Source of the DNA: Marispirochaeta sp. | GTDB lineage: Bacteria > Spirochaetota > Spirochaetia > JC444 > Marispirochaetaceae | NCBI GenBank assembly: GCA_963676835.2 | Contig: CAXXFF010000004.1 | Span: 256,001-320,000, forward strand | Length of the DNA stretch: 64,000 nucleotides | Reading direction: 5' to 3' | In this document: positions 49,892 to 61,550 of the stretch, in pieces | Layout of the letters: the number at the start of each line of letters is the position of its first letter | Numbering within the stretch: position 1 is the first letter of the stretch | Made by a program: the position numbers and the translations under genes | The notes under the pieces: generated by a model | Database searches by the model: none | Told to the model about the DNA's origin: nothing | What the model saw: only the letters and a program-made list of their open reading frames with translations

Positions 49892-51553
49892 CTAGTAGGC
49901 GGCAAAACCGAATATCAGCAGGCCGCTGAAGAAAAACACCAGCACCGTATGCAGATTGGGCATCATTTTGCGCACCGTTGCTGCATAAGCCTTCCCCGCT
50001 CCTGTTTTAAGTCCCAGAAATATGAGTATCCCCGCAGGAATCAGGTACAGAACCGTTGAAAGCTTATTCAGACTCCAGAGAGAGGGAGCGGAAGAGACCT
50101 TTCCCGGCTCAATCAGGAAGGCAATAATCCGGCTGACGGTGCTGCCGAAAACTCCTGCAGCAATACAGAGAACAGCAAGGAAAAACAGGGTAATGCCTTC
50201 CAGAACAGCTTTAGAAGCGGACTCTGTTTCCCTCAGATCCACTGACATCGAAGGTGAAGGCAGATAAATCCTGCTCAGCTTGATAAAGCTTGCCACCGTC
50301 ATAAAACCGGTAAGCCATATAAGGTAATAGGCGGGGGATCCTTTCATGGCATAGCTGATAAAGGCCTTGCTGGCATATCCGTTGAAGGGTGGCATTCCGG
50401 CAATGGAGGCTGCCGCGACAAAGAAGGTGATCGCCGCCAGGGGTATCTCCCTTCCCAGAGGGCGAATGACATACAGGTTTCTGCTTTTTCCACGCTCAAC
50501 CGCCATACCTACGGTGAGAAACAGCAGGCTTTTAAACAGGGCATGATTTACCGCATGAAACACCGAGGCACTGAAGCCGGCAGCAGTACCGGTACCGAAT
50601 ACCGCCAGGATATAGCCCATCTGCGAGACGGAGTGAAATGCAAGCAGCCGTTTGGCATCGGACTGAGCCAGGGCATAGAGCACCGCCGCAAGGGCCGTAA
50701 GGGCACCAATCCAGAGCAGCAGGGAATAGAGGTAGTCGCCGTTAAAGGCAACGAGAATACGCACCATGGCAAAGAATGATATTTTTATCAGCACCCCGGA
50801 AAGGAGAGCAGAAACCGGATGGGGAGCAAAGGCATGGGCTTCCGGCAGCCAGGTATGAAAGGGAATGAAGGCGGTACGGACTCCGATACCGACACAGAGG
50901 GAGGCCAGAGCAAAGTGGACAGCTTTTCCGGAAACTCCTGCTCCGGGACTTTCAAGAGCTTTATGAATCAAATCAAGAGAAAGAACCCCAAGTTCACGGT
51001 AAATAAGAAATACCCCGAAAAGAAAAAAGAGAATGCCCACAGAACTGAGAATCAGATACTTGAATCCCGCCACCAGGGATGCAGGGCTCTGCTCATAGAC
51101 AATAAGCATATAGGCGGCTATGGCTACAATCTCGAAACAGACAAACATGGTAAAGAGATCCCCCGTTAATGCCACCCCTATAAGACCCGCAGCCATGAGG
51201 GACAGGAAAAGGTAGTAGGCGGAGGAAAACTTTTTAGACCCGAAAGAAAACAGTCCGGAAAAAAAAGAGAGCAGGGAAACCAGGATAATGGAGATCCAGG
51301 CAAAGCCGTCAAGCACGAGGCTTATTCCCCATGGTTCAGGCCAGCCGCCCAGGGAGTAGACTATTCTGCCGCCTTCATACACCTCCGGTAAAAAGGGGGC
51401 AGCTATAAGTCCCGGGAGAAGAATTGAAACAATAGAAACAAAGGAGAGGGCTCTTCCGGCGGAGGGGAAGATTTTCCCGAACAGTGCAAGGGCACCGCCG
51501 GTCATGGGGAGAGCTATCATCAGAGGAATCAGAGGAGTCAGTGTTTCACTCAT
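49892..51553 (-). CDS. mnhD: Mrp/Mbh antiporter-like subunit D (MnhD/NuoM family)
   Basis: GDLFTMFVCFE, FHTWLPEAH, HSVSQMGY, NHALFKSLLF, GMPPFNG. Confidence 0.85.
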   Translation of the reverse strand: MSETLTPLIPLMIALPMTGGALALFGKIFPSAGRALSFVSIVSILLPGLIAAPFLPEVYEGGRIVYSLGGWPEPWGISLVLDGFAWISIILVSLLSFFSGLFSFGSKKFSSAYYLFLSLMAAGLIGVALTGDLFTMFVCFEIVAIAAYMLIVYEQSPASLVAGFKYLILSSVGILFFLFGVFLIYRELGVLSLDLIHKALESPGAGVSGKAVHFALASLCVGIGVRTAFIPFHTWLPEAHAFAPHPVSALLSGVLIKISFFAMVRILVAFNGDYLYSLLLWIGALTALAAVLYALAQSDAKRLLAFHSVSQMGYILAVFGTGTAAGFSASVFHAVNHALFKSLLFLTVGMAVERGKSRNLYVIRPLGREIPLAAITFFVAAASIAGMPPFNGYASKAFISYAMKGSPAYYLIWLTGFMTVASFIKLSRIYLPSPSMSVDLRETESASKAVLEGITLFFLAVLCIAAGVFGSTVSRIIAFLIEPGKVSSAPSLWSLNKLSTVLYLIPAGILIFLGLKTGAGKAYAATVRKMMPNLHTVLVFFFSGLLIFGFAAY

Positions 51554-51893
51554 CAATCTTCCAGGCCTGTAGTTCAATTTCCCTTATATCCAGGGTATTA
51601 AAGCGCTGAAAAAGGGCATCGCACAGGGCCAGGGCCAGGGCGACAATACAGACTCCCACAACAATGGCAGTCAGCATGAGCGCCTGGGGCAAGGGGTCAA
51701 CCATGGCGCTGTGCTCCGCACCGCTTCCCTCAATGGGGGCAATAGTACCGGAGAAAGACCCGTAGTAGAGAAACAGAAGAATAATACCGCTGTTGGCGAT
51801 GCTCAGTGCCATTACCTTCTTAACAATGTTCGGTTTTCGTAAAACTCCCCAGAGTCCCACAAGAAAAACCGCCCCGGTCAGATACCAGATCAC
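51546..51893 (-). CDS. mnhC: Mrp antiporter subunit C
   Basis: VDPLPQALMLTAIVVG motif. Confidence 0.88.
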   Translation of the reverse strand: MIWYLTGAVFLVGLWGVLRKPNIVKKVMALSIANSGIILLFLYYGSFSGTIAPIEGSGAEHSAMVDPLPQALMLTAIVVGVCIVALALALCDALFQRFNTLDIREIELQAWKIDE

Positions 51894-52318
51894 TCTTCCT
51901 CCCGATTATCCTGAAACAGACGTATGCAGATAAGGCTGATACCGGCTCCTACCTTCAGCCCGATGATCACGTTAAAAATCAGAATCAATGAGATTCTGGG
52001 GCCCTCAGAAGCTTCAACGGCCCCGCCAAGCAGCCCGAGAAAGCCGGTACCGTAGAGGGCGCCGGCAAAGCCGATAAGAAGGAGCAACAAAAATCCCACA
52101 GCCTCGATTAGAGAAAGGGCCCGATACGGATACAGTCTCTCCACGGCATCGATCCCCCGGCTTACGCTCATGAGAATCACCGCCGAGGCAATGACCACCC
52201 CGCCCTGGAACCCGCCGCCGGGAGAAAGATGCCCGTATGCGAGAAGATAAAAACCGAAAAGCAGCATAAAGGGGGTCAGCTTCCGGGAAACGAGATCAAG
52301 AATATCACTCTTCTCCAT
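51890..52318 (-). CDS. mnhB: Mrp antiporter subunit B (MnhB domain)
   Basis: GHLSPGGGFQGG, GLKVG. Confidence 0.88.
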   Translation of the reverse strand: MEKSDILDLVSRKLTPFMLLFGFYLLAYGHLSPGGGFQGGVVIASAVILMSVSRGIDAVERLYPYRALSLIEAVGFLLLLLIGFAGALYGTGFLGLLGGAVEASEGPRISLILIFNVIIGLKVGAGISLICIRLFQDNREEE

Positions 52319-52595
52319 GATTCCCCCCGGTAAGATAGAGCACTCCGGAAACAGCAAGGAGAAGCACAATAGTTTCCCCCAGGGTATCGAAAGCCCGGAA
52401 ACCGAGATAGATGGAGGTAACCAGATTCAGGGCTCCGGTCTCCGCCTCTCCGTTGGCCACAATGTAATCCCGGATGGTACTGGCCTCCGGATGAGGACCG
52501 GAAAGGGCTGTAAAAAGAAAAAGCCCCACCAGAAGGACCAGGGCAATCTCAAGCCCTCCCCGAACCAATTTAAAAAGCCGCCGCCCCTGTTTCAT
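52305..52595 (-). CDS. MbhE-like subunit (MrpA C-terminal fragment)
   Basis: NLVTSIYLGFRAFDTLGE motif. Confidence 0.8.
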   Translation of the reverse strand: MKQGRRLFKLVRGGLEIALVLLVGLFLFTALSGPHPEASTIRDYIVANGEAETGALNLVTSIYLGFRAFDTLGETIVLLLAVSGVLYLTGGNHGEE

Positions 52596-52825
52596 GTATC
52601 ATCCCTCCGGCCGGTGCGGTGGACAATCCAGATCATAACCAGGGTTCCAACCCCGGTTCCCACAGCGGCTTCCGTCAGGGCTACATCGGGAGCGTGGTAG
52701 AGAAAAAAGACCAGGCAGCTGAGCAGACTGAATACCCCGAGCATAAGCACAGCCGCAAGCATATCCTTCAACTGAAGGGCGATAACTCCGCTTATGAGCA
52801 TGAGAATCAGCAGGATTTCAACCAT
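52592..52825 (-). CDS. DUF4040/MbhD-like subunit
   Basis: APDVALTEAAVG motif. Confidence 0.8.
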   Translation of the reverse strand: MVEILLILMLISGVIALQLKDMLAAVLMLGVFSLLSCLVFFLYHAPDVALTEAAVGTGVGTLVMIWIVHRTGRRDDT

Positions 52826-53147
52826 CCGACCCTCCCAGTTCCCGCCGTTTCCGGTATCCCCGCTTCCAGGGGATAATACCGTTCTGCCAGGCGAAGCGGG
52901 CAATAATATGGGCGGAAATAGGGTTTGTCACAAAGAAAAATATGGTAATGACCAAAAGCCGGCCGGTCATGGGACCCCATCCGGCAATAAGAAAACAGCC
53001 GATGAGGATGGAAAACACCGAGGTTGTACTGCAGGTGGAAGATGCCTGCAGCCGGGTGTATACATCAGGAAACACCAGAACTCCGATGTTTCCCATAATA
53101 TTAAAGATTACTCCCAGACCGAAAAAAATTGCCGCCGCAATAGTCAC
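52818..53147 (-). CDS. mnhG: Mrp antiporter subunit G
   Basis: FPDVYTRLQA, TNPISAHII. Confidence 0.85.
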   Translation of the reverse strand: MTIAAAIFFGLGVIFNIMGNIGVLVFPDVYTRLQASSTCSTTSVFSILIGCFLIAGWGPMTGRLLVITIFFFVTNPISAHIIARFAWQNGIIPWKRGYRKRRELGGSDG

Positions 53148-53419
53148 AGGTCCCCTCCCCGGTTTTTCTGCCCGCCGAAGTAACGGGTAAGGGCAAGAAT
53201 TCCGACGAAGCCGAATATATCGTAAACCAGGGCCACATCAAGATAGATTACATGATTACCTGCCACGGAATAGATAACCAGCACCGCAAGGGTCTGGGAG
53301 GCAACCAGATTGAGCCCTGTCATACGGTCAGCCACGGTGGGGCCGATTACCACGCGGATCATACTGATAACGGAGGAGGCAATAAGAAAATAGATCAGAT
53401 AAGTCAGCATCAGAGCCAT
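53144..53419 (-). CDS. mnhF: Mrp antiporter subunit F
   Basis: RVVIGPTVADR, YLDVALV..FGFVG. Confidence 0.85.
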   Translation of the reverse strand: MALMLTYLIYFLIASSVISMIRVVIGPTVADRMTGLNLVASQTLAVLVIYSVAGNHVIYLDVALVYDIFGFVGILALTRYFGGQKNRGGDL

Positions 53420-53922
53420 ACCCTTCGCAGCAGCTTCTCAAAGGTGCCTTTTATAAGATCCCCGGCATAGCGGGAATGGCTGGTCCGGGCATCAAGCCAG
53501 TGAACGATCAGGTGATCATCATCCAGATCCAGGGTAATGGTTCCGGGAGTCAGGGTTATGGAGCTGGTCAGGGCAACCCGGGCAATATCCGTCTTAAGGT
53601 GGGTGCGAAAATGGACAATTCCGGGGTTTATGCGTCCCCGCAGAATATTGAGAAGAACCTTGAAACTGGCCACATACATATTGAAGATGAGTACCAGCAG
53701 AAAGACGACAAACATATGCGGCCGGGGAAGGTGGGCCCGGCGGCCGGCTTCGGACTCTTCAATAAACTGCCGGTAGGTAAGCAGGGAAACCAGCAGACTT
53801 GCAACACCGCCGGCAACAAGCGAACCGGAATCCAGGGACCAGGTAAAGAGCAGCCAGCCTCCGAAAAGAGAGAAAAAGGTAATGAAAAAGCGGACCAGGG
53901 CCCAGCGGGTTTCAAGCCTCAT
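53410..53922 (-). CDS. mnhE: Mrp antiporter subunit E
   Basis: INPGIV, SITLTPGT, L.VH, FEK. Confidence 0.87.
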   Translation of the reverse strand: MRLETRWALVRFFITFFSLFGGWLLFTWSLDSGSLVAGGVASLLVSLLTYRQFIEESEAGRRAHLPRPHMFVVFLLVLIFNMYVASFKVLLNILRGRINPGIVHFRTHLKTDIARVALTSSITLTPGTITLDLDDDHLIVHWLDARTSHSRYAGDLIKGTFEKLLRRVWL

Positions 53923-54380
53923 TTACTCTCCCTGCTGATAAAAGCCGCCATTACCTCCTCTGCTGAGGATGCCGCCAGAAGAGCATTGCAGAAGGTACGG
54001 TCGTGGAGGTACCGGGCGAGCCGGCTGAGAACCTTCAGGTGTCCCGCTTCATCCCCTTCCGGACCAATGAGCAGGAAAAAGAGGGCCACCGGCTGATTAT
54101 CCACGGCATCGAATTTTGCCCCCTCAAGCCTTCTTCCGAAAACAATGCGGGTGTCGGCAACCTGGGAAGTGAAACAGTGGGGAATGGCAATGCCCGAACC
54201 GATGCCGGTGGTATTGATCTTTTCCCGCTTCTTCAAATCCCGCACAATTTCATCGGGCTTTGCAAGCTCGGTACTGCGGGCGAGGATATCAACCAGTTCC
54301 CGTAAAATATCCGGTTTGCGTCTGGACTTCAGAGACAACTCTATACCTTCAATGGTAAGAAGTTCGTGCAGCAGTGCCAT
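53919..54380 (-). CDS. PTS EIIA (Fru/Ntr-type) domain protein
   Basis: REK..TTGIGSGIAIPH phospho-His motif, HLKVLSRLAR. Confidence 0.88.
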   Translation of the reverse strand: MALLHELLTIEGIELSLKSRRKPDILRELVDILARSTELAKPDEIVRDLKKREKINTTGIGSGIAIPHCFTSQVADTRIVFGRRLEGAKFDAVDNQPVALFFLLIGPEGDEAGHLKVLSRLARYLHDRTFCNALLAASSAEEVMAAFISRESK

Positions 54381-54718
54381 CAATCCTCCTCCACCAGTCC
54401 CGCAGCCCAGTCCACAGGCAGGGTAAACAGAATTCCTGTTCCGGGATTGTCCAGACCGCCGCAAATCTCATTCAGCAGACTGTGAAGCCTTGGAACCAGG
54501 GACTCATTCTGAACAACGGAAAAAATGGTTTTGTTATAGGGTTTATTCCCTTTCATGAACTCTTTGAATCCTGCAAAAAGGGGTACCTCATAGGTTAGAA
54601 ACCGGCCCATTCCCTCGGAGTCAAGGATGGTTCCTCCGGAAATTCCTACTTCCGCATATGCTTCCAGTACCTGTTCAAGGAGTTCTTCACGATTCAGTAC
54701 AAACACTACAAGCTTCAT
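54380..54718 (-). CDS. PII-like protein
   Basis: GISGGTILDSEGMG and GTGILFTLPV, PII-superfamily pattern. Confidence 0.72.
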   Translation of the reverse strand: MKLVVFVLNREELLEQVLEAYAEVGISGGTILDSEGMGRFLTYEVPLFAGFKEFMKGNKPYNKTIFSVVQNESLVPRLHSLLNEICGGLDNPGTGILFTLPVDWAAGLVEED

Positions 54719-54826
54719 ATCTGCTTTCCCGCGGCCGCCGGCTAAGGGCGGTTTACTGATATGTTTTAAGGTACCCGGTGACTGGAGGGGAGTCAATGGA
54801 ATATTCTGGCCAGAATCAGTTGAGAA

Positions 54827-55282
54827 TCAATTAAGATAGGTACTGAAGCTGTCAAAGATATGATAGCGCCTAAGGTCCGGAAGATTACCGATTACTATCC
54901 GGTTTTCATATTCCACCCAGGCGTGGGCTTCAAAGGGTTCATCCCCCCCCATGGCAACTCCAACTTTAAGCTCAACAGAATAGCCCTGACGGCGGCATAG
55001 AGTATATGCAGTAAAGGCCCGGGGCAGACAGTTGTAGGTTCCGGGAAGCAGCCTCCCCCATATTTCAACCCAGCGGCAGGTATCAACAACACCTGCGTCG
55101 AATCCACCGGCTGGAGACTTCTCCGCCTGCTGCTTTAAACGGCTTACGGCCTGCTGAAAAGGGTATCGGCGGAGAACCAGCCTTGTGCTGAAAAGCATCA
55201 TCCCCGCCTGGAGAAACGCAGCCTTCCCCCTGGAGGGAAGCGCGTAAAAGCGGCGGATTTTATTAAGCAAGCGTATCCACAA
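54827..55282 (-). CDS. Lasso-type leader peptidase B2 (transglutaminase-like)
   Basis: NCLPRA...G..VELKVGV...FEAHAWVE catalytic Cys/His motif; coupled to upstream PqqD gene; start uncertain (TTG 55282 or 55270). Confidence 0.85.
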   Translation of the reverse strand: MWIRLLNKIRRFYALPSRGKAAFLQAGMMLFSTRLVLRRYPFQQAVSRLKQQAEKSPAGGFDAGVVDTCRWVEIWGRLLPGTYNCLPRAFTAYTLCRRQGYSVELKVGVAMGGDEPFEAHAWVEYENRIVIGNLPDLRRYHIFDSFSTYLN

Positions 55283-55538
55283 GACCTTCTTCTCCAAGTT
55301 TCTCCGCAAGGGCGAGAATATCCTCCCTGCACTGATCTTCTGCAACATCGAATTCCTGCTGAACCAGGGAACACAGACCTGCAAGGGATTCAGCCTTAAC
55401 AATATTCTTCCAGATAAAAGCTCCTACTTCATTGAGACTGAAATAGAAACCACGTTCAACATGCATGAGCACCATTTCACCGTTTACTTCGGTATGAATA
55501 ACCCCTTCCCGCTGCTGTATCCGTGTATTTAAATCCAT
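55263..55538 (-). CDS. PqqD/RRE protein (lasso B1)
   Basis: EVNGEMVLM..G.YFSLNEVGAFIW, FDVAEDQCREDI..L..EGLV. Confidence 0.9.
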   Translation of the reverse strand: MDLNTRIQQREGVIHTEVNGEMVLMHVERGFYFSLNEVGAFIWKNIVKAESLAGLCSLVQQEFDVAEDQCREDILALAEKLGEEGLVDTLA

Positions 55539-55656
55539 AGATCGGCTTCCTTCTTCTTTTTATGATACCCTTGTATTCTAATGAAAAACACAAAAACGTA
55601 AAGCATTGCCCCGGGAGGGCTTCAAGCAATACTGAAGCCATAGTAGTATAAGGGGC

Positions 55657-56868
55657 ATGAAAAAAACAGCAGAAGAAGAAATACTGATCGCACTGACTGC
55701 GGATAGAACCGACAGGGCAGTGTCAATTATAAAAGCCGAAGATCCGGATTACCGGAAACTGCTTCAATTAGCGGCGAAGCACAAACTTCACGGTATTACC
55801 GCCCAGAAACTGCTGGATATTTCCCGGCAGACTGGAATTGAACTGTCCGAAGCCGATATTACCGGAACCCTCCAGGCGGCGGTGGCCATGAATATGCAGC
55901 TGAAAGCCGGGTTTCTTGGTGTAAAGGAGATGCTGAAAAAAGAGCAGGTTGATTTCCTGCTGATAAAAGGCTTTGCCCTGGATCCGTCCCCTTTGAGGGC
56001 AATGAATGATATCGACATCCTTATCCGGGAGGATAAAATTCGTCAGGTTTTTGAGGCAATGACCGCCGGGGGCTACACCTACATGGGCAGTAATGTCATG
56101 ACAAAAGAGGAATTTGCCGACCCCTTTTCCACCCTCCACTGGAACAACCAGTTTCAGTTCAGATCGCCCCGGGTACCGGCGGATATTGAAATTCACACAG
56201 AACTGTTTGAACGGGACAGAATACGGCTGGAACGGCTTGACCGGTTTCTGGACAAGGCTGAGTTTTTCTGGGAAAACCGCAGATACCGGAAAGACCTCGA
56301 CTGTTACATACCGTCTCCGGAAGCAAATCTTGCCCTGCTGACCATCCACTGCACCACAAAACGTTCACCCGCCCACAACACCTATATTCTTCGCCATGCT
56401 TACGACCTGCACGCCCTGCTTGGGGAAAATCGTGACATGGAGAATATAGTGAATATGGAAAGATTTCTCTACCTCTGCAGTGAGTGGAAAATCGGCTACT
56501 ACGCCTATACTGCCTTCCGGCTTACAGCTCTGGCCCTTGATCTGCCGGATATCCTTGAAAAAGCTGAACTGTTGAAACCGCTCTTAACCAGGCGGGAGCT
56601 GATCCTCTCCAACCTGCACCTCAACTGCTACCGGGGCCTGGGAGATGCATCTTTTTTACGGCGGAAACTGTTTGCCCTGTTTATGCCCTTTGCCATAGGG
56701 GGCAGCGTAAAAAAAGGGGTAAGCTGGTACAGGAAAATACTCTTTCCCCCGGCATGGTACCAGGAGGAGCGGTACGGCATAAAAAGAAGTTCTCCCTTCT
56801 TCTTTCTCAGTTATATCTACGGACCCTTTGTTTTTCTGTGGCGGCGACTTACAGGGCTGAGTGAATAA
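55657..56868 (+). CDS. Nucleotidyltransferase family protein (NTP_transf_5-like)
   Basis: LIKGFAL, R.MNDIDILI, IEIH motifs. Confidence 0.82.
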   Translation: MKKTAEEEILIALTADRTDRAVSIIKAEDPDYRKLLQLAAKHKLHGITAQKLLDISRQTGIELSEADITGTLQAAVAMNMQLKAGFLGVKEMLKKEQVDFLLIKGFALDPSPLRAMNDIDILIREDKIRQVFEAMTAGGYTYMGSNVMTKEEFADPFSTLHWNNQFQFRSPRVPADIEIHTELFERDRIRLERLDRFLDKAEFFWENRRYRKDLDCYIPSPEANLALLTIHCTTKRSPAHNTYILRHAYDLHALLGENRDMENIVNMERFLYLCSEWKIGYYAYTAFRLTALALDLPDILEKAELLKPLLTRRELILSNLHLNCYRGLGDASFLRRKLFALFMPFAIGGSVKKGVSWYRKILFPPAWYQEERYGIKRSSPFFFLSYIYGPFVFLWRRLTGLSE

Positions 56869-56907
56869 GAAAAATGTACAGGGAAAAAAGCACAAGTAAA
56901 GAGAGGA

Positions 56908-58734
56908 TCAGGACTCTTTTATCTGACGCAGCTGGGTATGATAGAGCCCTGCATAATAGCCGGCTGCCTGAACAAGCTCATCGTGGGAGCCCTCCTCTAT
57001 TACCCGGCCGCCCCGCATAACATAGATTCGGTCCGCCCGGCGTGCAGCGGCAATCTTGTGGCTTACCAGAAGCAGACTGCCTCCTCCCACAATACCCCTT
57101 ATATTGTCGATAAAATCTGATTCCGAGGGTGGATCAAGCTCCGCGGTGGGCTCATCGAGGATAGTAAAGGGTGCTCCCCGGAAAACGGTACGGGCCAGAG
57201 CTACTTTTTTCCACTGACCTCCGCTCAGTTCCGCACCGTCTTCGAGCCAGCGGCCGAGGACAGTCCCGTATCCGTCGGGTAAAGCCTTTAGAAACTCATG
57301 GGCGCCGACTTTTTCCGCCGCCTCATGCAGGGCAGAATTATTGTCATTGGTTATATCACCGTAGCGGATATTCTCAGCGGCGGTATAGTAGTAGTGGGTA
57401 AAATCCTGAAAGAGCACACCCAGATTTTTACGATACTCCTCAGGCTCCAGGCTGCGCAGATCGGTGCCGTTCAGGCAGACCCTGCCCTCATCGGGTTCAT
57501 AAAACCTGCAGAGCAGGTTGATAAGGGTACTTTTACCTGCACCGTTGTCTCCCACAATGGCAACAAACTCGCCGGGGGCTATTTTGAGTGAAACCCTGTC
57601 GAGAACCTTGTTTGCGGTTCCGGGGTAATGAAAACTGACGGATTCAACCGAGAGACCCCGGCTGTCATCAATAAGCGGTCCATCGCCGCCGGCTTTACCC
57701 TCACCTGTCGCCTCTTTTACCTTTTCAACCTCCACCGGCAGATTCAGAAACTCAAAAACCGCCGACAGGTATAAATTGGTCTCATACAGACGGGCCACGC
57801 CCCGAAGCAGATCGGACATGGCCTGCTGGCCCCGCTGGATAGCCTGAAAGAAAAGTACAAGATTTCCCAGAGAGGTTCCGCTGGTAATGCTTGTGTAGGC
57901 AAAATATCCTAAAAGCCCAATGGTAATGAGCGACTGGAATGCAACGGCAAAGAATTCACCCGCCGCCCGGCGGCCGGTAAGAGACAGAAGCTCTCTGCGG
58001 AGCCTGATTCTCCAGGAAGAGGCCTTCTCCTGAAAATGGTCCTGCAGACCGTTGATACGGTTTTCCCGTACATTGGTTTTATCTGTAAGCAGCCAGTTAA
58101 GATAAAAAACATGCCGTTCCGAGGAGGTCTGCTCCATTCGCCAGGCATAGATCCTGGCAGACGAGGAGAGAAGCACCAGAGCCACCGGCAGTGCAGAAAC
58201 TGCCAGAAGCAGAATGGTAAACCAGGGAAGAGTGTAAATAAGCAGCCCCGCAATACCGGCAATGGAGACAGCGGAGCTTATGAGGCCGGTTACAATATCT
58301 ACAATCTGGGCAGGACGGTAGGGCGCTTCCGCCTGAGCCCGGTGAAGCTTGTCGTGAAACTCGGGCACCTCATAATAGGCAAGATCGAGCTCCACCGACT
58401 TCTGTTGAACCACACCCTGCATATAGTCGCTTAATACCTGCCCCTGCACCTGACGGAGAAAATTGCCCCCGGTGCGGAACAGGGCGGACAAAAGGAGCGC
58501 TGCCCCGGTAAGCATAATTACCGGCAGAATCTCCGCAAAGCCGCCGCCGGCCGCCAGGGTATCCACCATGAGTTTTACCGCATAGAGGGGAACAAGGGGG
58601 ACAATCCCCTGAAATGTCATAACAGTAACTGTAAGCAGGCTTAAGCCGGGGCTGCTTTTCCAGAGCAGCCCGATACCACGGGAAAATACGCCGGCCCCTT
58701 TCCTGAGGCGCAGTATGCGGCCGGAAAGGTTCAC
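56908..58734 (-). CDS. ABC exporter (fused TMD + ATPase)
   Basis: GDNGAGKST, LSGGQW, ILDEPT; N-terminal TM domain. Confidence 0.92.
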   Translation of the reverse strand: MNLSGRILRLRKGAGVFSRGIGLLWKSSPGLSLLTVTVMTFQGIVPLVPLYAVKLMVDTLAAGGGFAEILPVIMLTGAALLLSALFRTGGNFLRQVQGQVLSDYMQGVVQQKSVELDLAYYEVPEFHDKLHRAQAEAPYRPAQIVDIVTGLISSAVSIAGIAGLLIYTLPWFTILLLAVSALPVALVLLSSSARIYAWRMEQTSSERHVFYLNWLLTDKTNVRENRINGLQDHFQEKASSWRIRLRRELLSLTGRRAAGEFFAVAFQSLITIGLLGYFAYTSITSGTSLGNLVLFFQAIQRGQQAMSDLLRGVARLYETNLYLSAVFEFLNLPVEVEKVKEATGEGKAGGDGPLIDDSRGLSVESVSFHYPGTANKVLDRVSLKIAPGEFVAIVGDNGAGKSTLINLLCRFYEPDEGRVCLNGTDLRSLEPEEYRKNLGVLFQDFTHYYYTAAENIRYGDITNDNNSALHEAAEKVGAHEFLKALPDGYGTVLGRWLEDGAELSGGQWKKVALARTVFRGAPFTILDEPTAELDPPSESDFIDNIRGIVGGGSLLLVSHKIAAARRADRIYVMRGGRVIEEGSHDELVQAAGYYAGLYHTQLRQIKES

Positions 58735-59735
58735 CGTACCACCTGAGAGCGGCCCGGGGCGGCATTAAGAAACGCTATAACATCAGGCAATCGTTCATAG
58801 CCTTCGGGAATGTTCAAAATCTGAACAGGAACCTGAGCCGCCACGGCACCTATCATGCCCAGACGTTTCTGTCCCCGGTCTACCGCATCCAGAAGCTCCG
58901 CTGCAAAGGCATGTCGAACCAGGGACATAACCCCTTCTGCTGCTCCTACAGGAGTTACAGAAGGTTGATCAGAGCCGTTTCGGCTGAGAAAATAGATTGC
59001 AGTAAGAGGTAGGTTATGAGAATAGAATGATCCTAACTGCTCACTGTGCTGCGGAACCTTCAGCCCCCGTTGGCCCGCCAGGCTTATAGAACCTACAGGA
59101 ATTTTAAGCTTTTCGAAGCCCGGGTGTATTTTTCCGTAATTATCCGGATTTCCCCCTAAAATTTTCAGCTGATGAGAAAAGAGCTTCATCTGGGGAAATC
59201 CCGGAAAAGCTGTAACTCCATCAGGTCCCACGGACAAAGCCAGAATATCATCAGTTACCAGGGGATACCCCCCTGCGACACAGGCGGTAGCCAGGGTGGT
59301 TTTACCGGTGCCGGAATCTGCAATAAAAGCGACGCAGCCGTCTCCTGCCTTGACGGCCGATGCATGCAGCATAAGAATACCCTGCCGCTCCAGCCAGAAG
59401 GACATAACATTGCCCACAAAGAAGATCTCAATAAGATATTCAATATCCGGCAGCAGAGGATGGGCGGTAATCTCATTACCCCGCATTTCAAATCCGCAGA
59501 CCCCGGTTATGTAGAGGGTCTCGCAGGTTTCGGAAAGAAAAAGCTCCACCCGGCCCCCCTCATAGTTTTCCACCGGGGCACGGACCCCTTCCGGAGTGTA
59601 CTCCGGGTTTACGGGCAGCACGGAAAAAGAGAGATCTACTTCGCCCCGGGGCTCCTCCGGAGGCAGGAGATTGAAAGTAAAGGGAAAGGATGAAGCGAGA
59701 TGCGCTCCGTAAAGCATGTAACGGGATTCATTCAT
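58731..59735 (-). CDS. HprK-related kinase (lasso-cluster type)
   Basis: LHASAV, DSGTGKTT Walker A, LVTDD. Confidence 0.82.
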   Translation of the reverse strand: MNESRYMLYGAHLASSFPFTFNLLPPEEPRGEVDLSFSVLPVNPEYTPEGVRAPVENYEGGRVELFLSETCETLYITGVCGFEMRGNEITAHPLLPDIEYLIEIFFVGNVMSFWLERQGILMLHASAVKAGDGCVAFIADSGTGKTTLATACVAGGYPLVTDDILALSVGPDGVTAFPGFPQMKLFSHQLKILGGNPDNYGKIHPGFEKLKIPVGSISLAGQRGLKVPQHSEQLGSFYSHNLPLTAIYFLSRNGSDQPSVTPVGAAEGVMSLVRHAFAAELLDAVDRGQKRLGMIGAVAAQVPVQILNIPEGYERLPDVIAFLNAAPGRSQVVR

Positions 59736-60933
59736 GTACAAGAAGCCCCTGTTCCTTCAAAGATGCGGCAAAATGCTCCAGATCCTTTCGAATCTCTTCC
59801 GGATCGGCATCGTAGAGGCCCGCGAGCTCTTCCGCGGCCTTTACGGTACTCTCTGCCCGAAGCAGTATATCCCACATATCCGCCGCTGTGTCTTCCAGAA
59901 GGAAACAATCTCTTCCCTGCTCTTCTCCGTTTTCGGTAAAGTCAGCCACAACAATGCGGTTTTCACCGATCCTGGCGGCCACAACTTCAGGGGCGGCAGT
60001 CCAGCCGGAAGGGCTGTCCTCATGCAGCTGAACAGTCCCCCGGTCTTCTCCTTCAAAACGGTTTCTAAAACAGCGCTGCGGAGGATAGAGGCGAAAGGCA
60101 AGTTCAATTTCGTCGGTAACGGAATTAATAAAGACACTTTCCGGTTCGCTCCAGGAGAAAACTATTGTTTTTGGATGACCTGTCCAGAGAACCTTTTCAC
60201 CTGATTTACTCTCCCATCCCGATTTCCACTGGGCATAGGTTTCTCCGTACATCTCCGGAGCCTGGTCCTGGTACTCCATGGCCGCCGTAATGGGAAAAGA
60301 CTGATGAACTCCACCTTTACCGTTACAAAGAGATTCCGGTGCAGCCAGAACCGCAACATGAACCTCCCGGTGGGGCTCCTGCTTCTGTATGGATTCGACT
60401 GTCTGGCGGATTCTGAAGCCCGAGAAAACCGCATCGTCCACAAGCAGAATTGGACGCTTTACCGCTTCCCCTCCCCTGCTCCCGGTTTCGGTCAATTTCC
60501 CCAGGGCATAGAGCAGCAGGCCGCAGACGATATATCCACCCCGGGGAACAGGTCTAATCTCAAACTGAGCCAGCCTCTCACGGCCGTATGTCCGGATAAG
60601 TTTCTCCGCAAGATCTTCCGCAAAATTTTCCGCCTCAGGGTAGCTGATATAGAGTGAATCTTTCAAAGTCTGGGGAATCTGGGTCGCCAGGCGGGCAATC
60701 AGTTCAACCCGCTCAGGAGATAAATCACCAAAAAGATAGATTCCTTCCTGCTCTTTTTTTTCTACATCATGGTGCAAACGAAGCACCATATATGCATCAC
60801 TCAGCCGGGAGTCCCGGTTCAGAGTATCTCCAAGTATCCGGAGAGCAGCGGCAGCATCTGAAGCGCCGGTCAGTTTTAAAAGGGATGAAGAATCTGTAGT
60901 TGTCGAGAATAGTTTAACTGCTTTAAATGACAT
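59728..60933 (-). CDS. Phosphoribosyltransferase-like domain fused to C-terminal PqqD/RRE
   Basis: PVPRGG loop and ILLVDDAVFSG PRPP-binding motif; C-terminus FLLEDTAADMW...YDADPEEIRKDL..F..SLKEQGLL resembles PqqD; start codon uncertain. Confidence 0.7.
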   Translation of the reverse strand: MSFKAVKLFSTTTDSSSLLKLTGASDAAAALRILGDTLNRDSRLSDAYMVLRLHHDVEKKEQEGIYLFGDLSPERVELIARLATQIPQTLKDSLYISYPEAENFAEDLAEKLIRTYGRERLAQFEIRPVPRGGYIVCGLLLYALGKLTETGSRGGEAVKRPILLVDDAVFSGFRIRQTVESIQKQEPHREVHVAVLAAPESLCNGKGGVHQSFPITAAMEYQDQAPEMYGETYAQWKSGWESKSGEKVLWTGHPKTIVFSWSEPESVFINSVTDEIELAFRLYPPQRCFRNRFEGEDRGTVQLHEDSPSGWTAAPEVVAARIGENRIVVADFTENGEEQGRDCFLLEDTAADMWDILLRAESTVKAAEELAGLYDADPEEIRKDLEHFAASLKEQGLLVHE

Positions 60934-60966
60934 AAAAAACCGGGCACCATGTTACCACGGGCCCGG
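60934..60966 (-). terminator. Rho-independent terminator/attenuator after precursor A1
   Basis: Minus strand CCGGGCCCGTGG-taa-CATGGTGCCCGG followed by T6. Confidence 0.7.
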
Positions 60967-61012
60967 GACCTCTATTCGTTAAGATTAATAGAAAAATAGT
61001 ATATCAGAGATA

Positions 61013-61198
61013 CTAAATAATACTGCTGGTTGTTTTAATTGGCGATCCGCCTTCTGAAACCGTACCGGCGCCGCTTCCTTCACTGCTGCTTCCCTTTCCA
61101 CTGCCGAAAAGCGCCTCGATAATGCCTGACTGCGTAAGATCGGCTACACTACCCCACTCTTTAATCTGCGGTTTCTGGTATTGCTTTTTTGCCTGCAT
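61013..61198 (-). CDS. RiPP precursor A1 (61 aa, lasso-type leader)
   Basis: MQAKKQYQKPQIKEWGSVADLTQ|SGIIEALFGSGKGSSSEGSGAGTVSEGGSPIKTTSSII; GGGAG RBS. Confidence 0.8.
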   Translation of the reverse strand: MQAKKQYQKPQIKEWGSVADLTQSGIIEALFGSGKGSSSEGSGAGTVSEGGSPIKTTSSII

Positions 61199-61231
61199 AT
61201 TATTCTCCCTGAGATATATTCTCAATAAATA

Positions 61232-61260
61232 AGTGTATACCCCAATTTTACAGCGGTCAA
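61232..61260 (-). promoter_or_regulatory. Sigma-70 promoter for precursor A1
   Basis: TTGACC-17 bp-TACACT. Confidence 0.6.
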
Positions 61261-61306
61261 TGTTAAGATGAGAAAATAACCGGTATTTTTCAACTAAAGA
61301 AGGAGT

Positions 61307-61335
61307 TCCGTCTGTCTACCTGGTAAACAGACGGA
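61307..61335 (-). terminator. Stem-loop immediately after precursor A2
   Basis: TCCGTCTGT...ACAGACGGA perfect 9-bp stem. Confidence 0.55.
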
Positions 61336-61345
61336 TAGCAGTAAA

Positions 61346-61489
61346 TTAATACTCGCCCCGGGGACCGACGATCTCGATCACATTCAATGACCCGTTACCG
61401 CCGACTCTTTCTGTCAGCTTGGTAACTGTTCCCCACTGCTTTACTTCAGGCTTGGTGTAGGTTCGTTTTTCCTGTTTTTCGTTCTGCAT
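61346..61489 (-). CDS. RiPP precursor A2 (47 aa, not in ORF track)
   Basis: Manual translation MQNEKQEKRTYTKPEVKQWGTVTKLTE|RVGGNGSLNVIEIVGPRGEY*; AGGAG RBS; leader matches A1. Confidence 0.82.
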   Translation of the reverse strand: MQNEKQEKRTYTKPEVKQWGTVTKLTERVGGNGSLNVIEIVGPRGEY

Positions 61490-61521
61490 CTTTTTCTCCT
61501 TGAAAAGTTTTTAATGGGTAA

Positions 61522-61550
61522 AGTCTGCACGGTGTCAGCATAATTGTCAA
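61522..61550 (-). promoter_or_regulatory. Sigma-70 promoter for precursor A2
   Basis: TTGACA-17 bp-CAGACT. Confidence 0.5.

Follow-up and report, generated by a model that had tools for sequence, protein, structure and literature searches.

A lasso-peptide gene cassette without a cyclase in Marispirochaeta, a probable route to linear, decorated peptides

What can a lasso-peptide pathway be for when the enzyme that closes the lasso is missing? This question is raised by a gene cluster in a stretch of 64,000 nucleotides (the window; positions 256,001 to 320,000 of contig CAXXFF010000004.1) from the spirochaete Marispirochaeta sp., whose genome (G000; 4.43 Mb in 4 contigs) is 97.3% complete. Coordinates below are window positions unless a contig or locus is named. 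The cluster encodes two precursors with lasso-type leaders (A1 and A2), a protein that fuses a phosphoribosyltransferase (PRTase) domain to a recognition element (RRE) for peptides (RiPPs) that are ribosomally synthesized and then post-translationally modified, an HprK-like kinase (K), an ATP-binding cassette (ABC) exporter (D), an inverted nucleotidyltransferase (N) and the lasso proteins B1 and B2, all of them present and open as the original prediction had described; the macrolactam cyclase C is absent. We consider it probable that a lasso pathway has here been converted into one for linear peptides decorated with phosphate and sugar, with C and the ring-forming Asp having been lost. The extent first given to the cluster, 54827..61550, holds at its lower edge, where B2 ends, but the upper boundary is corrected to 61489, the open reading frame (ORF) ending at 61550 looking spurious.

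No asparagine-synthetase-like gene (PF00733) was found in the window, as had been predicted from its ORFs, and the genome-wide search named beforehand as the test of the proposal detected no cyclase in assembled G000 (the gap between its contigs C4 and C2 aside), nor anywhere in a congener, G002, whose genome is a single contig and 96% complete. Assembled G000 has three PF00733 matches, none of which reads as a lasso cyclase: two are AsnB-type amidotransferases with an N-terminal MCG, which lie in a polysaccharide/non-ribosomal peptide synthetase (NRPS) locus, match TIGR01536 best (498 and 441 bits) and score 231 and 209 as lasso cyclases against a cut-off of 525, and the third is a NadE-like gene. 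A locally built cyclase hidden Markov model gave a single further match, of 24 bits, and the sole PF00733 match of G002 (22 bits) is TilS-like by sequence and context. The RiPP leader machinery of G000 comes to one B2 and two RREs, all inside the window cluster. The locus that holds the two amidotransferases (C4:553690-566411 and C2:3815-7840) is NRPS/polyketide synthase-like, with ACP/PPTase-like genes, and lies within a polysaccharide locus.

The ring acceptor is missing as well, a point that the original prediction had not made. Lasso rings need an Asp or Glu at core position 7-9 (PMC6993621, PMC9266682). The 20-residue core of A1 (47 aa; 61346-61489, minus strand; leader ending KLT-E) has none there, its only acidic residue being E12, and the 38-residue, Ser/Gly-rich core of A2 (61 aa; 61013-61198, minus strand; leader ending DLT-Q), which begins SGIIEALFGS, has only E5. 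Counting an orphan precursor elsewhere in the genome, A3, none of the three G000 cores has an acidic residue at 7-9, and neither does A2 of G002. Core position 3 is Gly (A1), Ile (A2) or Pro. Both window leaders fit Y-x-K-P-x-[IV]-K-x-W-G-[ST]-V-x-x-L-T-x, a lasso leader of the YxxPxL type with Thr at -2, and both genes have GGAG ribosome sites upstream; A2 scores above the NF033521 lasso-leader cut-off (23 bits versus 19), and A1 gives only a weak lasso_cyano match (E 0.053). The leader motif is not a chance occurrence, since a strict six-frame search finds it at three sites only in 4.43 Mb, namely A1, A2 and A3. The last lies outside the window on contig C2 (C2:20051-20212, plus strand) and has a counterpart in G002 (C1 near 1861269; L153); in each species the orphan is upstream-convergent with the gene of a response regulator. 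The two A3 cores are strongly divergent, with a G(x)xICIP segment common to both, and a leader-pattern search found no such orphan in G001, G003, G004 or G005. Between A1 and A2, a 13-bp hairpin (61307-61335, minus strand) is terminator- or processing-like by its sequence.

Whether such a cassette is decaying can be judged from the congener. At the corresponding site G002 has the cassette, likewise without a cyclase; its only precursor there is the A2 orthologue, A1 being absent, and all seven genes common to the two species are open. Their ratios of nonsynonymous to synonymous substitution (dN/dS) are 0.087 for B1, 0.092 for D, 0.113 for B2, 0.115 for K, 0.127 for N, 0.193 for the PRTase-RRE fusion and 0.243 for A2, at pairwise dS values of 1.11-1.72, which are near saturation; eight flanking genes, taken for comparison, gave 0.024-0.111. 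The A2 cores of the two species agree throughout residues 1-10 (6 synonymous and no replacement changes), the leader having changed its residue at 6 of 23 codons. Because both species share this conserved, acceptor-less core, C would have been useless for A2 before they split. Purifying selection on the cassette in two species makes repurposing for a non-lariat product the best reading, and the simplest history, as judged from this comparison, would be one in which C and the acceptor were lost before the split and the remainder has been maintained since. The repurposing that the original prediction proposed thus gains from the missing cyclase, the missing acceptor and the selection on the genes, whereas the phosphorylation, the glycosylation or nucleotidylation and the phosphoribosylation that it proposed for the product we still infer.

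Elsewhere, the PRTase-RRE protein is accompanied by a cyclase. Its family counts 412 clusters at E <=0.001 and 339 clusters (50% identity) at E <=1e-10. Loci were sampled by a degenerate DNA pattern, which, being built on the family consensus, leans to consensus-like members; it returned at least 115 matches, 35 of which (with <=639 bp) were left out of the locus counts and 80 of which had flanks, and 79 of these 80 confirm the protein (L090 does not). Among the matches listed, to which all locus counts in this text are limited, an asparagine-synthetase-like gene accompanies the fusion in 67/79 loci, as does a kinase (67/79), and where each flank extends to 5 kb or more, the two counts become 37/38 and 38/38. 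Nine such neighbours from eight loci all match the lasso cyclase family NF033535 best, one of them above its cut-off. Precursors were found in 44 loci and carry Asp at core position 8 or 9 in 50 of 52 cases, every one of the 44 loci having at least one of this kind. Scans of the closest clade gave 13 loci, several of them duplicates of earlier ones, with C in 12; L167 and L185 agree with G002 in identity and precursor and are no separate case. A quick tree nests the window protein and the G002 orthologue, at a support of 99, among Opitutia proteins whose loci possess C and Asp8/9 cores and six proteins considered without their gene neighbourhoods. Nesting among C-bearing loci indicates that the cyclase-less state is derived and no family trait, and with nearly all homologous clusters keeping C, it amounts to a derived loss in one lineage. 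The candidate "new class" first proposed for this cluster is given up on these grounds, and also because cyclase-free linear peptides have been published (PMC13381572). It had further been argued that retention of C by homologues would mark this copy as a decayed remnant; retention is indeed the rule, but decay is not apparent, the genes being intact with dN/dS of 0.087-0.243.

This PRTase-RRE/HprK lasso family extends over Halomonadaceae, Opitutia, Spirochaetaceae, cyanobacteria, Acidobacteriota and others. The window has in common with it the fusion beside a related kinase, the YxxP...WG.V..LT leader and the closest exporter relatives; its members retain a cyclase-like gene, or two of them, and cores with Asp8/9 (often of the form xGxTxPGxD), and the window has neither. 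N was seen in 3/79 family loci, by a three-sequence profile of low sensitivity. Two cyclase-like genes per cluster occur in L052, L055, L056, L078, L097, L099 and L107, and many clusters have no B1/B2 within 10 kb. In C-bearing loci the core pattern xGxTxPGxD is followed by a G-[ST]-hydrophobic tail motif in 40/57 cases (duplicates included), its Thr4 and the tail Ser being candidate sites for the kinase or the PRTase. The one well-flanked homologue without C, L104, was rejected as a parallel case: its PRTase is short and no precursor was found. In both L104 and L102 (Chloroflexota) a divergent PRTase adjoins a weak HprK-like gene, and neither a cyclase nor a precursor turned up; a neighbour in L104 reads as sulfotransferase-like from its sequence.

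The fusion itself (401 aa; 59728-60933, minus strand) is composed of a type I PRTase-fold domain at ~92-290, with a PRGG loop and a DD..SG motif, and a C-terminal B1-like RRE at ~309-400 (PF05402, 36.6 bits), preceded by ~90 extra residues. Fold and motifs of the phosphoribosyl pyrophosphate (PRPP) site are common to it and type I PRTases (XGPRT, HGPRT, OPRT, PyrR), as are RRE fold and leader-binding surface to it and the lasso B1 proteins TbiB1 (5v1u) and TfuB1 (6jx3); unlike either, it joins both in one chain. Its PF00156 score is below the cut-off (20.7 versus 26.3). The predicted structure (pLDDT 93.7) has type I PRTases as its top fold matches (Foldseek, VIA-align; Z 11.3, root-mean-square deviation (rmsd) 4.1, 128 residues aligned), with PyrR and PurR also among its fold matches, and the RRE part matches the B1 RRE 6jx3 (Z 10.1, rmsd 2.0, 85 aligned). 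The core fold comes with its pyrophosphate (PPi) loop and acidic PRPP motif, R131-G132-G133 and D166-D167 being invariant in 120/120 homologues. The PRPP motif ends in S/T-G-x-R; the usual ending in type I PRTases is T-G-x-T. Complex prediction with A2 gave a score of 0.73, the best of three controls reaching 0.00, where the mark is reached by 116/157 solved pairs and 2/215 mismatched ones, runs share at least 43% of contacts and the partner has a pLDDT of at least 49; since like complexes have already been solved, this pass shows likeness and not binding. In the model, Y7, P10 and I12 of the leader would be seated on the RRE, with residues 17-20 placed at the first strand of the protein; this strand belongs to the N-terminal extension, and its pairing with the end of the leader is predicted.

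From these parts we infer the following course of events, in its chemistry as well as in its order. B1 and the PRTase-fused RRE would bind the YxxPx[IV] leader of A1 and A2, and possibly of the orphan A3. The kinase (58731-59741, minus strand), whose His126, GTGKT Walker A (144-148) and DD (164-165) are intact by reference to BsfK of the Bradymonas bsf cluster (PMC10368454), and which has Ala at the position of BsfK G163, as do several family members, would then phosphorylate or polyphosphorylate core Ser/Thr. The PRTase domain would use PRPP to place ribose-5-phosphate on the tethered peptide, the least certain step, suggested by fold, motif and tethering. N, an NTP_transf_5 nucleotidyltransferase of the PsmN/LppN-like type (55657-56868, plus strand and convergent with D; PF14907, 76 bits) with KG 104-105 and D118-x-D120 intact, may cap the phosphate with a sugar or nucleotide. 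B1, a discrete RRE (55263-55538, minus strand; PF05402, 71 bits), and B2, the lasso cysteine leader peptidase (54827-55282, minus strand; NF033537, 81 bits), both above their cut-offs, would cleave after T(-2)-X(-1); the B2 catalytic residues, Cys in NCLPRA and His in AHAWVE, are intact, and its start codon is probably TTG at 55282 or 55270, not 55402. Finally the MsbA-like exporter D (56908-58734, minus strand) would release the linear, decorated peptide.

Going further, one may speculate that the cluster makes a new type of linear RiPP in which the RRE-tethered PRTase puts the ribose-5-phosphate of PRPP on a side chain, and N caps it to an ADP-ribose-like or sugar-phosphate adduct; we regard this as doubtful. 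In the literature searched (few subscription papers; supplements outside) we found no PRTase in a RiPP cluster and no such transfer to a peptide side chain for any RiPP, and "phosphoribosyl" is absent from the main text of PMC12710340 (its supplementary list of RRE fusions being outside the search). If it were true, selection would be acting on the tailoring and not on the ring, and no system would be simpler than this cyclase-free one for finding out the chemistry of a family of >300 sequence clusters. Since lasso cyclases can express poorly, as was seen for PsmC (PMC6993621), phosphoribosylation of a peptide could be tested directly on a linear substrate, and the cluster is in this sense a cyclase-free test bed for a widespread, uncharacterized enzyme.

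Among the closest known systems are the linear polyphosphorylated peptides (LPPs), exemplified by the Paenibacillus alginolyticus lpp cluster (PMC13381572; Popov et al. 2026), where an RRE, an HprK kinase, an NTP transferase and an exporter, without a cyclase, yield linear polyphosphorylated products. [quoted passage not shown] In contrast, the LPP peptidase is SpI/SipW-like (the cluster genes include none of this kind, the search covering these genes), whereas the window has a true lasso B2; and the LPP leader is YxxPxVLxHQxIxFETxxS with phospho-site Ser3, whereas the window has YxKPx[IV]KxWG[ST]VxxLT with T(-2). LPPs are described as restricted to Bacillota; the window belongs to a spirochaete and adds the PRTase-RRE fusion. 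The phosphorylated or glycosylated lasso clusters of pseudomycoidin (psm; PMC6993621), paeninodin (pade) and bsf (PMC10368454) share with the window the set A, B1, B2, D, K and N, the kinase motif and the DxD motif of N, which PsmN needs for hexose addition. Unlike the window, all three have C and D/E at core 7-9, and the passages available on them mention no PRTase; moreover, PsmK modifies a C-terminal Ser, and the last residue of the cores in the window is Tyr or Ile. The cluster thus fits neither lasso peptides (no C, no acceptor) nor LPPs (peptidase, leader), and by analogy it most likely works like an LPP pathway built from true lasso B1/B2 and an uncharacterized PRTase. It illustrates how a border between RiPP classes may be crossed, with the class-defining enzyme and acceptor lost and leader, cutting, tailoring and export kept under selection. 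Its significance is limited because LPP linear phosphopeptides are published and the form has been seen in two genomes only.

The origin of the cassette is mixed. Beyond the cassette itself and G002, the best matches of B1 (52%), N (45%) and, by a thin margin, B2 are in the lasso cluster of a relative, G001 (L033:6040-14517; G001:C14), which has C and no PRTase, whereas exporter (43-45%) and kinase (31-33%) are closest to PRTase-type clusters; the cassette is a mosaic. The gene order is B1-B2-C-A-K-D-(S8 peptidase)-N(inverted) in G001 and A-A-PRT-K-D-N(inverted)-B1-B2 in the window. The latter is a rotation of the former with C missing at the joint, an arrangement that suggests recombination, or excision and reinsertion. 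The G001 cluster lies within a polysaccharide locus and has an S8-like peptidase, an inverted N and a D9 core.

Several observations count against the conversion we favour. The full cyclase-less form was seen in two genomes only; a protein search found the fusion in 1 of 60 relatives (G002) and not in the other 59, and a profile search of 400 genomes of the phylum found no match. The PRTase is the least constrained enzyme of the cassette (59% identity, with the dN/dS of 0.193 between G000 and G002), and its position 168 is Ala where 105/120 homologues have Cys. The absence of D/E across three positions has a chance of ~84%, as estimated from tail composition, and therefore fits decay as well as repurposing. 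Since the comparison is pairwise and dS is near saturation, a recent loss of function in one lineage or both would escape it; C may also have been lost twice, recently and independently, although this is less parsimonious. LppN, moreover, gave no product in the LPP study (PMC13381572). In a different account the cassette was selected while C was present, C was lost late, once or twice, and the rest is drifting, as yet unbroken. This account would draw on C adjoining the fusion in 67/79 confirmed loci and 37/38 well-flanked ones, on the cyclase-less form having been seen in two genomes only, on the relaxed PRTase with its lost Cys168 and on A1 being found in one species only. We think it unlikely: both species lack C at the same site, where 30 bp separate the end of B2 from the longest PII-like ORF and ~120 bp the start of A1 from the neighbouring gene, with no room for a leftover, and they conserve an acceptor-less A2 core at the protein level and have kept seven genes open over a dS of more than 1.

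The cassette may instead be functional with a product other than a free peptide bearing all the inferred marks, such as an exported phospho-sugar carrier or a surface or exopolysaccharide scaffold, the PRTase then being a non-catalytic, nucleotide-binding adaptor of the kinase. The fusion is paired with a kinase in all 38 well-flanked loci, regulators too can have a PRTase fold (PyrR and PurR being found here by fold), the core of A2 amounts to a long linker rich in Ser and Gly, the G001 relative of N, B1 and B2 sits inside a polysaccharide locus, and LPP and paeninodin clusters co-localize with capsule loci (PMC13381572). The window cassette, however, lies outside any polysaccharide locus, and a PPi loop and Asp-Asp motif invariant in 120/120 homologues speak for a domain that binds PRPP or turns it over; we hold this account to be decidedly unlikely. 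Finally, a lasso peptide might still arise, through a cyclase encoded elsewhere that works in trans, or at a non-canonical acceptor. The gap between the end of C4 and the start of C2 in G000 corresponds to the NadE-GT2 interval, where G001 has a full B1-B2-C-A-K-D-N lasso cluster with a cyclase scoring 590 bits on NF033535, and the orphan precursor of G002 carries D8. Yet the single-contig G002 has no cyclase, A1, A2 and the A3 of G000 have no D/E at 7-9, and the interval is empty, at ~2.6 kb, in G003. A contig of run X1 covers C2:1-4000 and extends ~34.9 kb (orientation taken as printed); one of three short repeats in range would give a gap of 2.6 kb, the size of the empty G003 interval, but the other end of that contig has no repeat. 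A lasso product seems to us very unlikely, and conversion to a linear, decorated product is the reading we retain.

Two further loci deserve mention. In Sediminispirochaeta sp. (L186:1-5825), an N 47% identical to that of the window stands with B1, a kinase, an exporter and a precursor without D/E at 7-9; there is no B2 or C between B1 and K and the contig ends in the exporter, and this may be a second cyclase-less case, albeit unproven. In a member of the Desulfuromonadaceae (L196:3432-11002), RRE-bearing radical-SAM-like genes, a peptidase-RRE-like, an HprK-like, an exporter and an N gene stand in a row with no cyclase match, the labels coming partly from sequence reading.

In the G000/G002 lineage the cassette has been inserted into a site flanked by a PII-like gene and by a gene for a solute-binding protein, a site that is empty in G001, G003 and G005 (G004 and G006 outside this count). 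Repeat and promoter scans yielded nothing notable beyond the A1-A2 hairpin, with 11 promoter-like matches against 5.8 +/- 2.8 in shuffled sequences. The flanks we take, partly from sequence reading, to be an Mrp-type antiporter operon with PTS-EIIA-/PII-like genes and, at the opposite end, an operon with a solute-binding protein. The Mrp/Mnh-type operon, at 49892-54796 with the PTS-EIIA-like and PII-like genes before it, is conserved in G001, G003 and G005.

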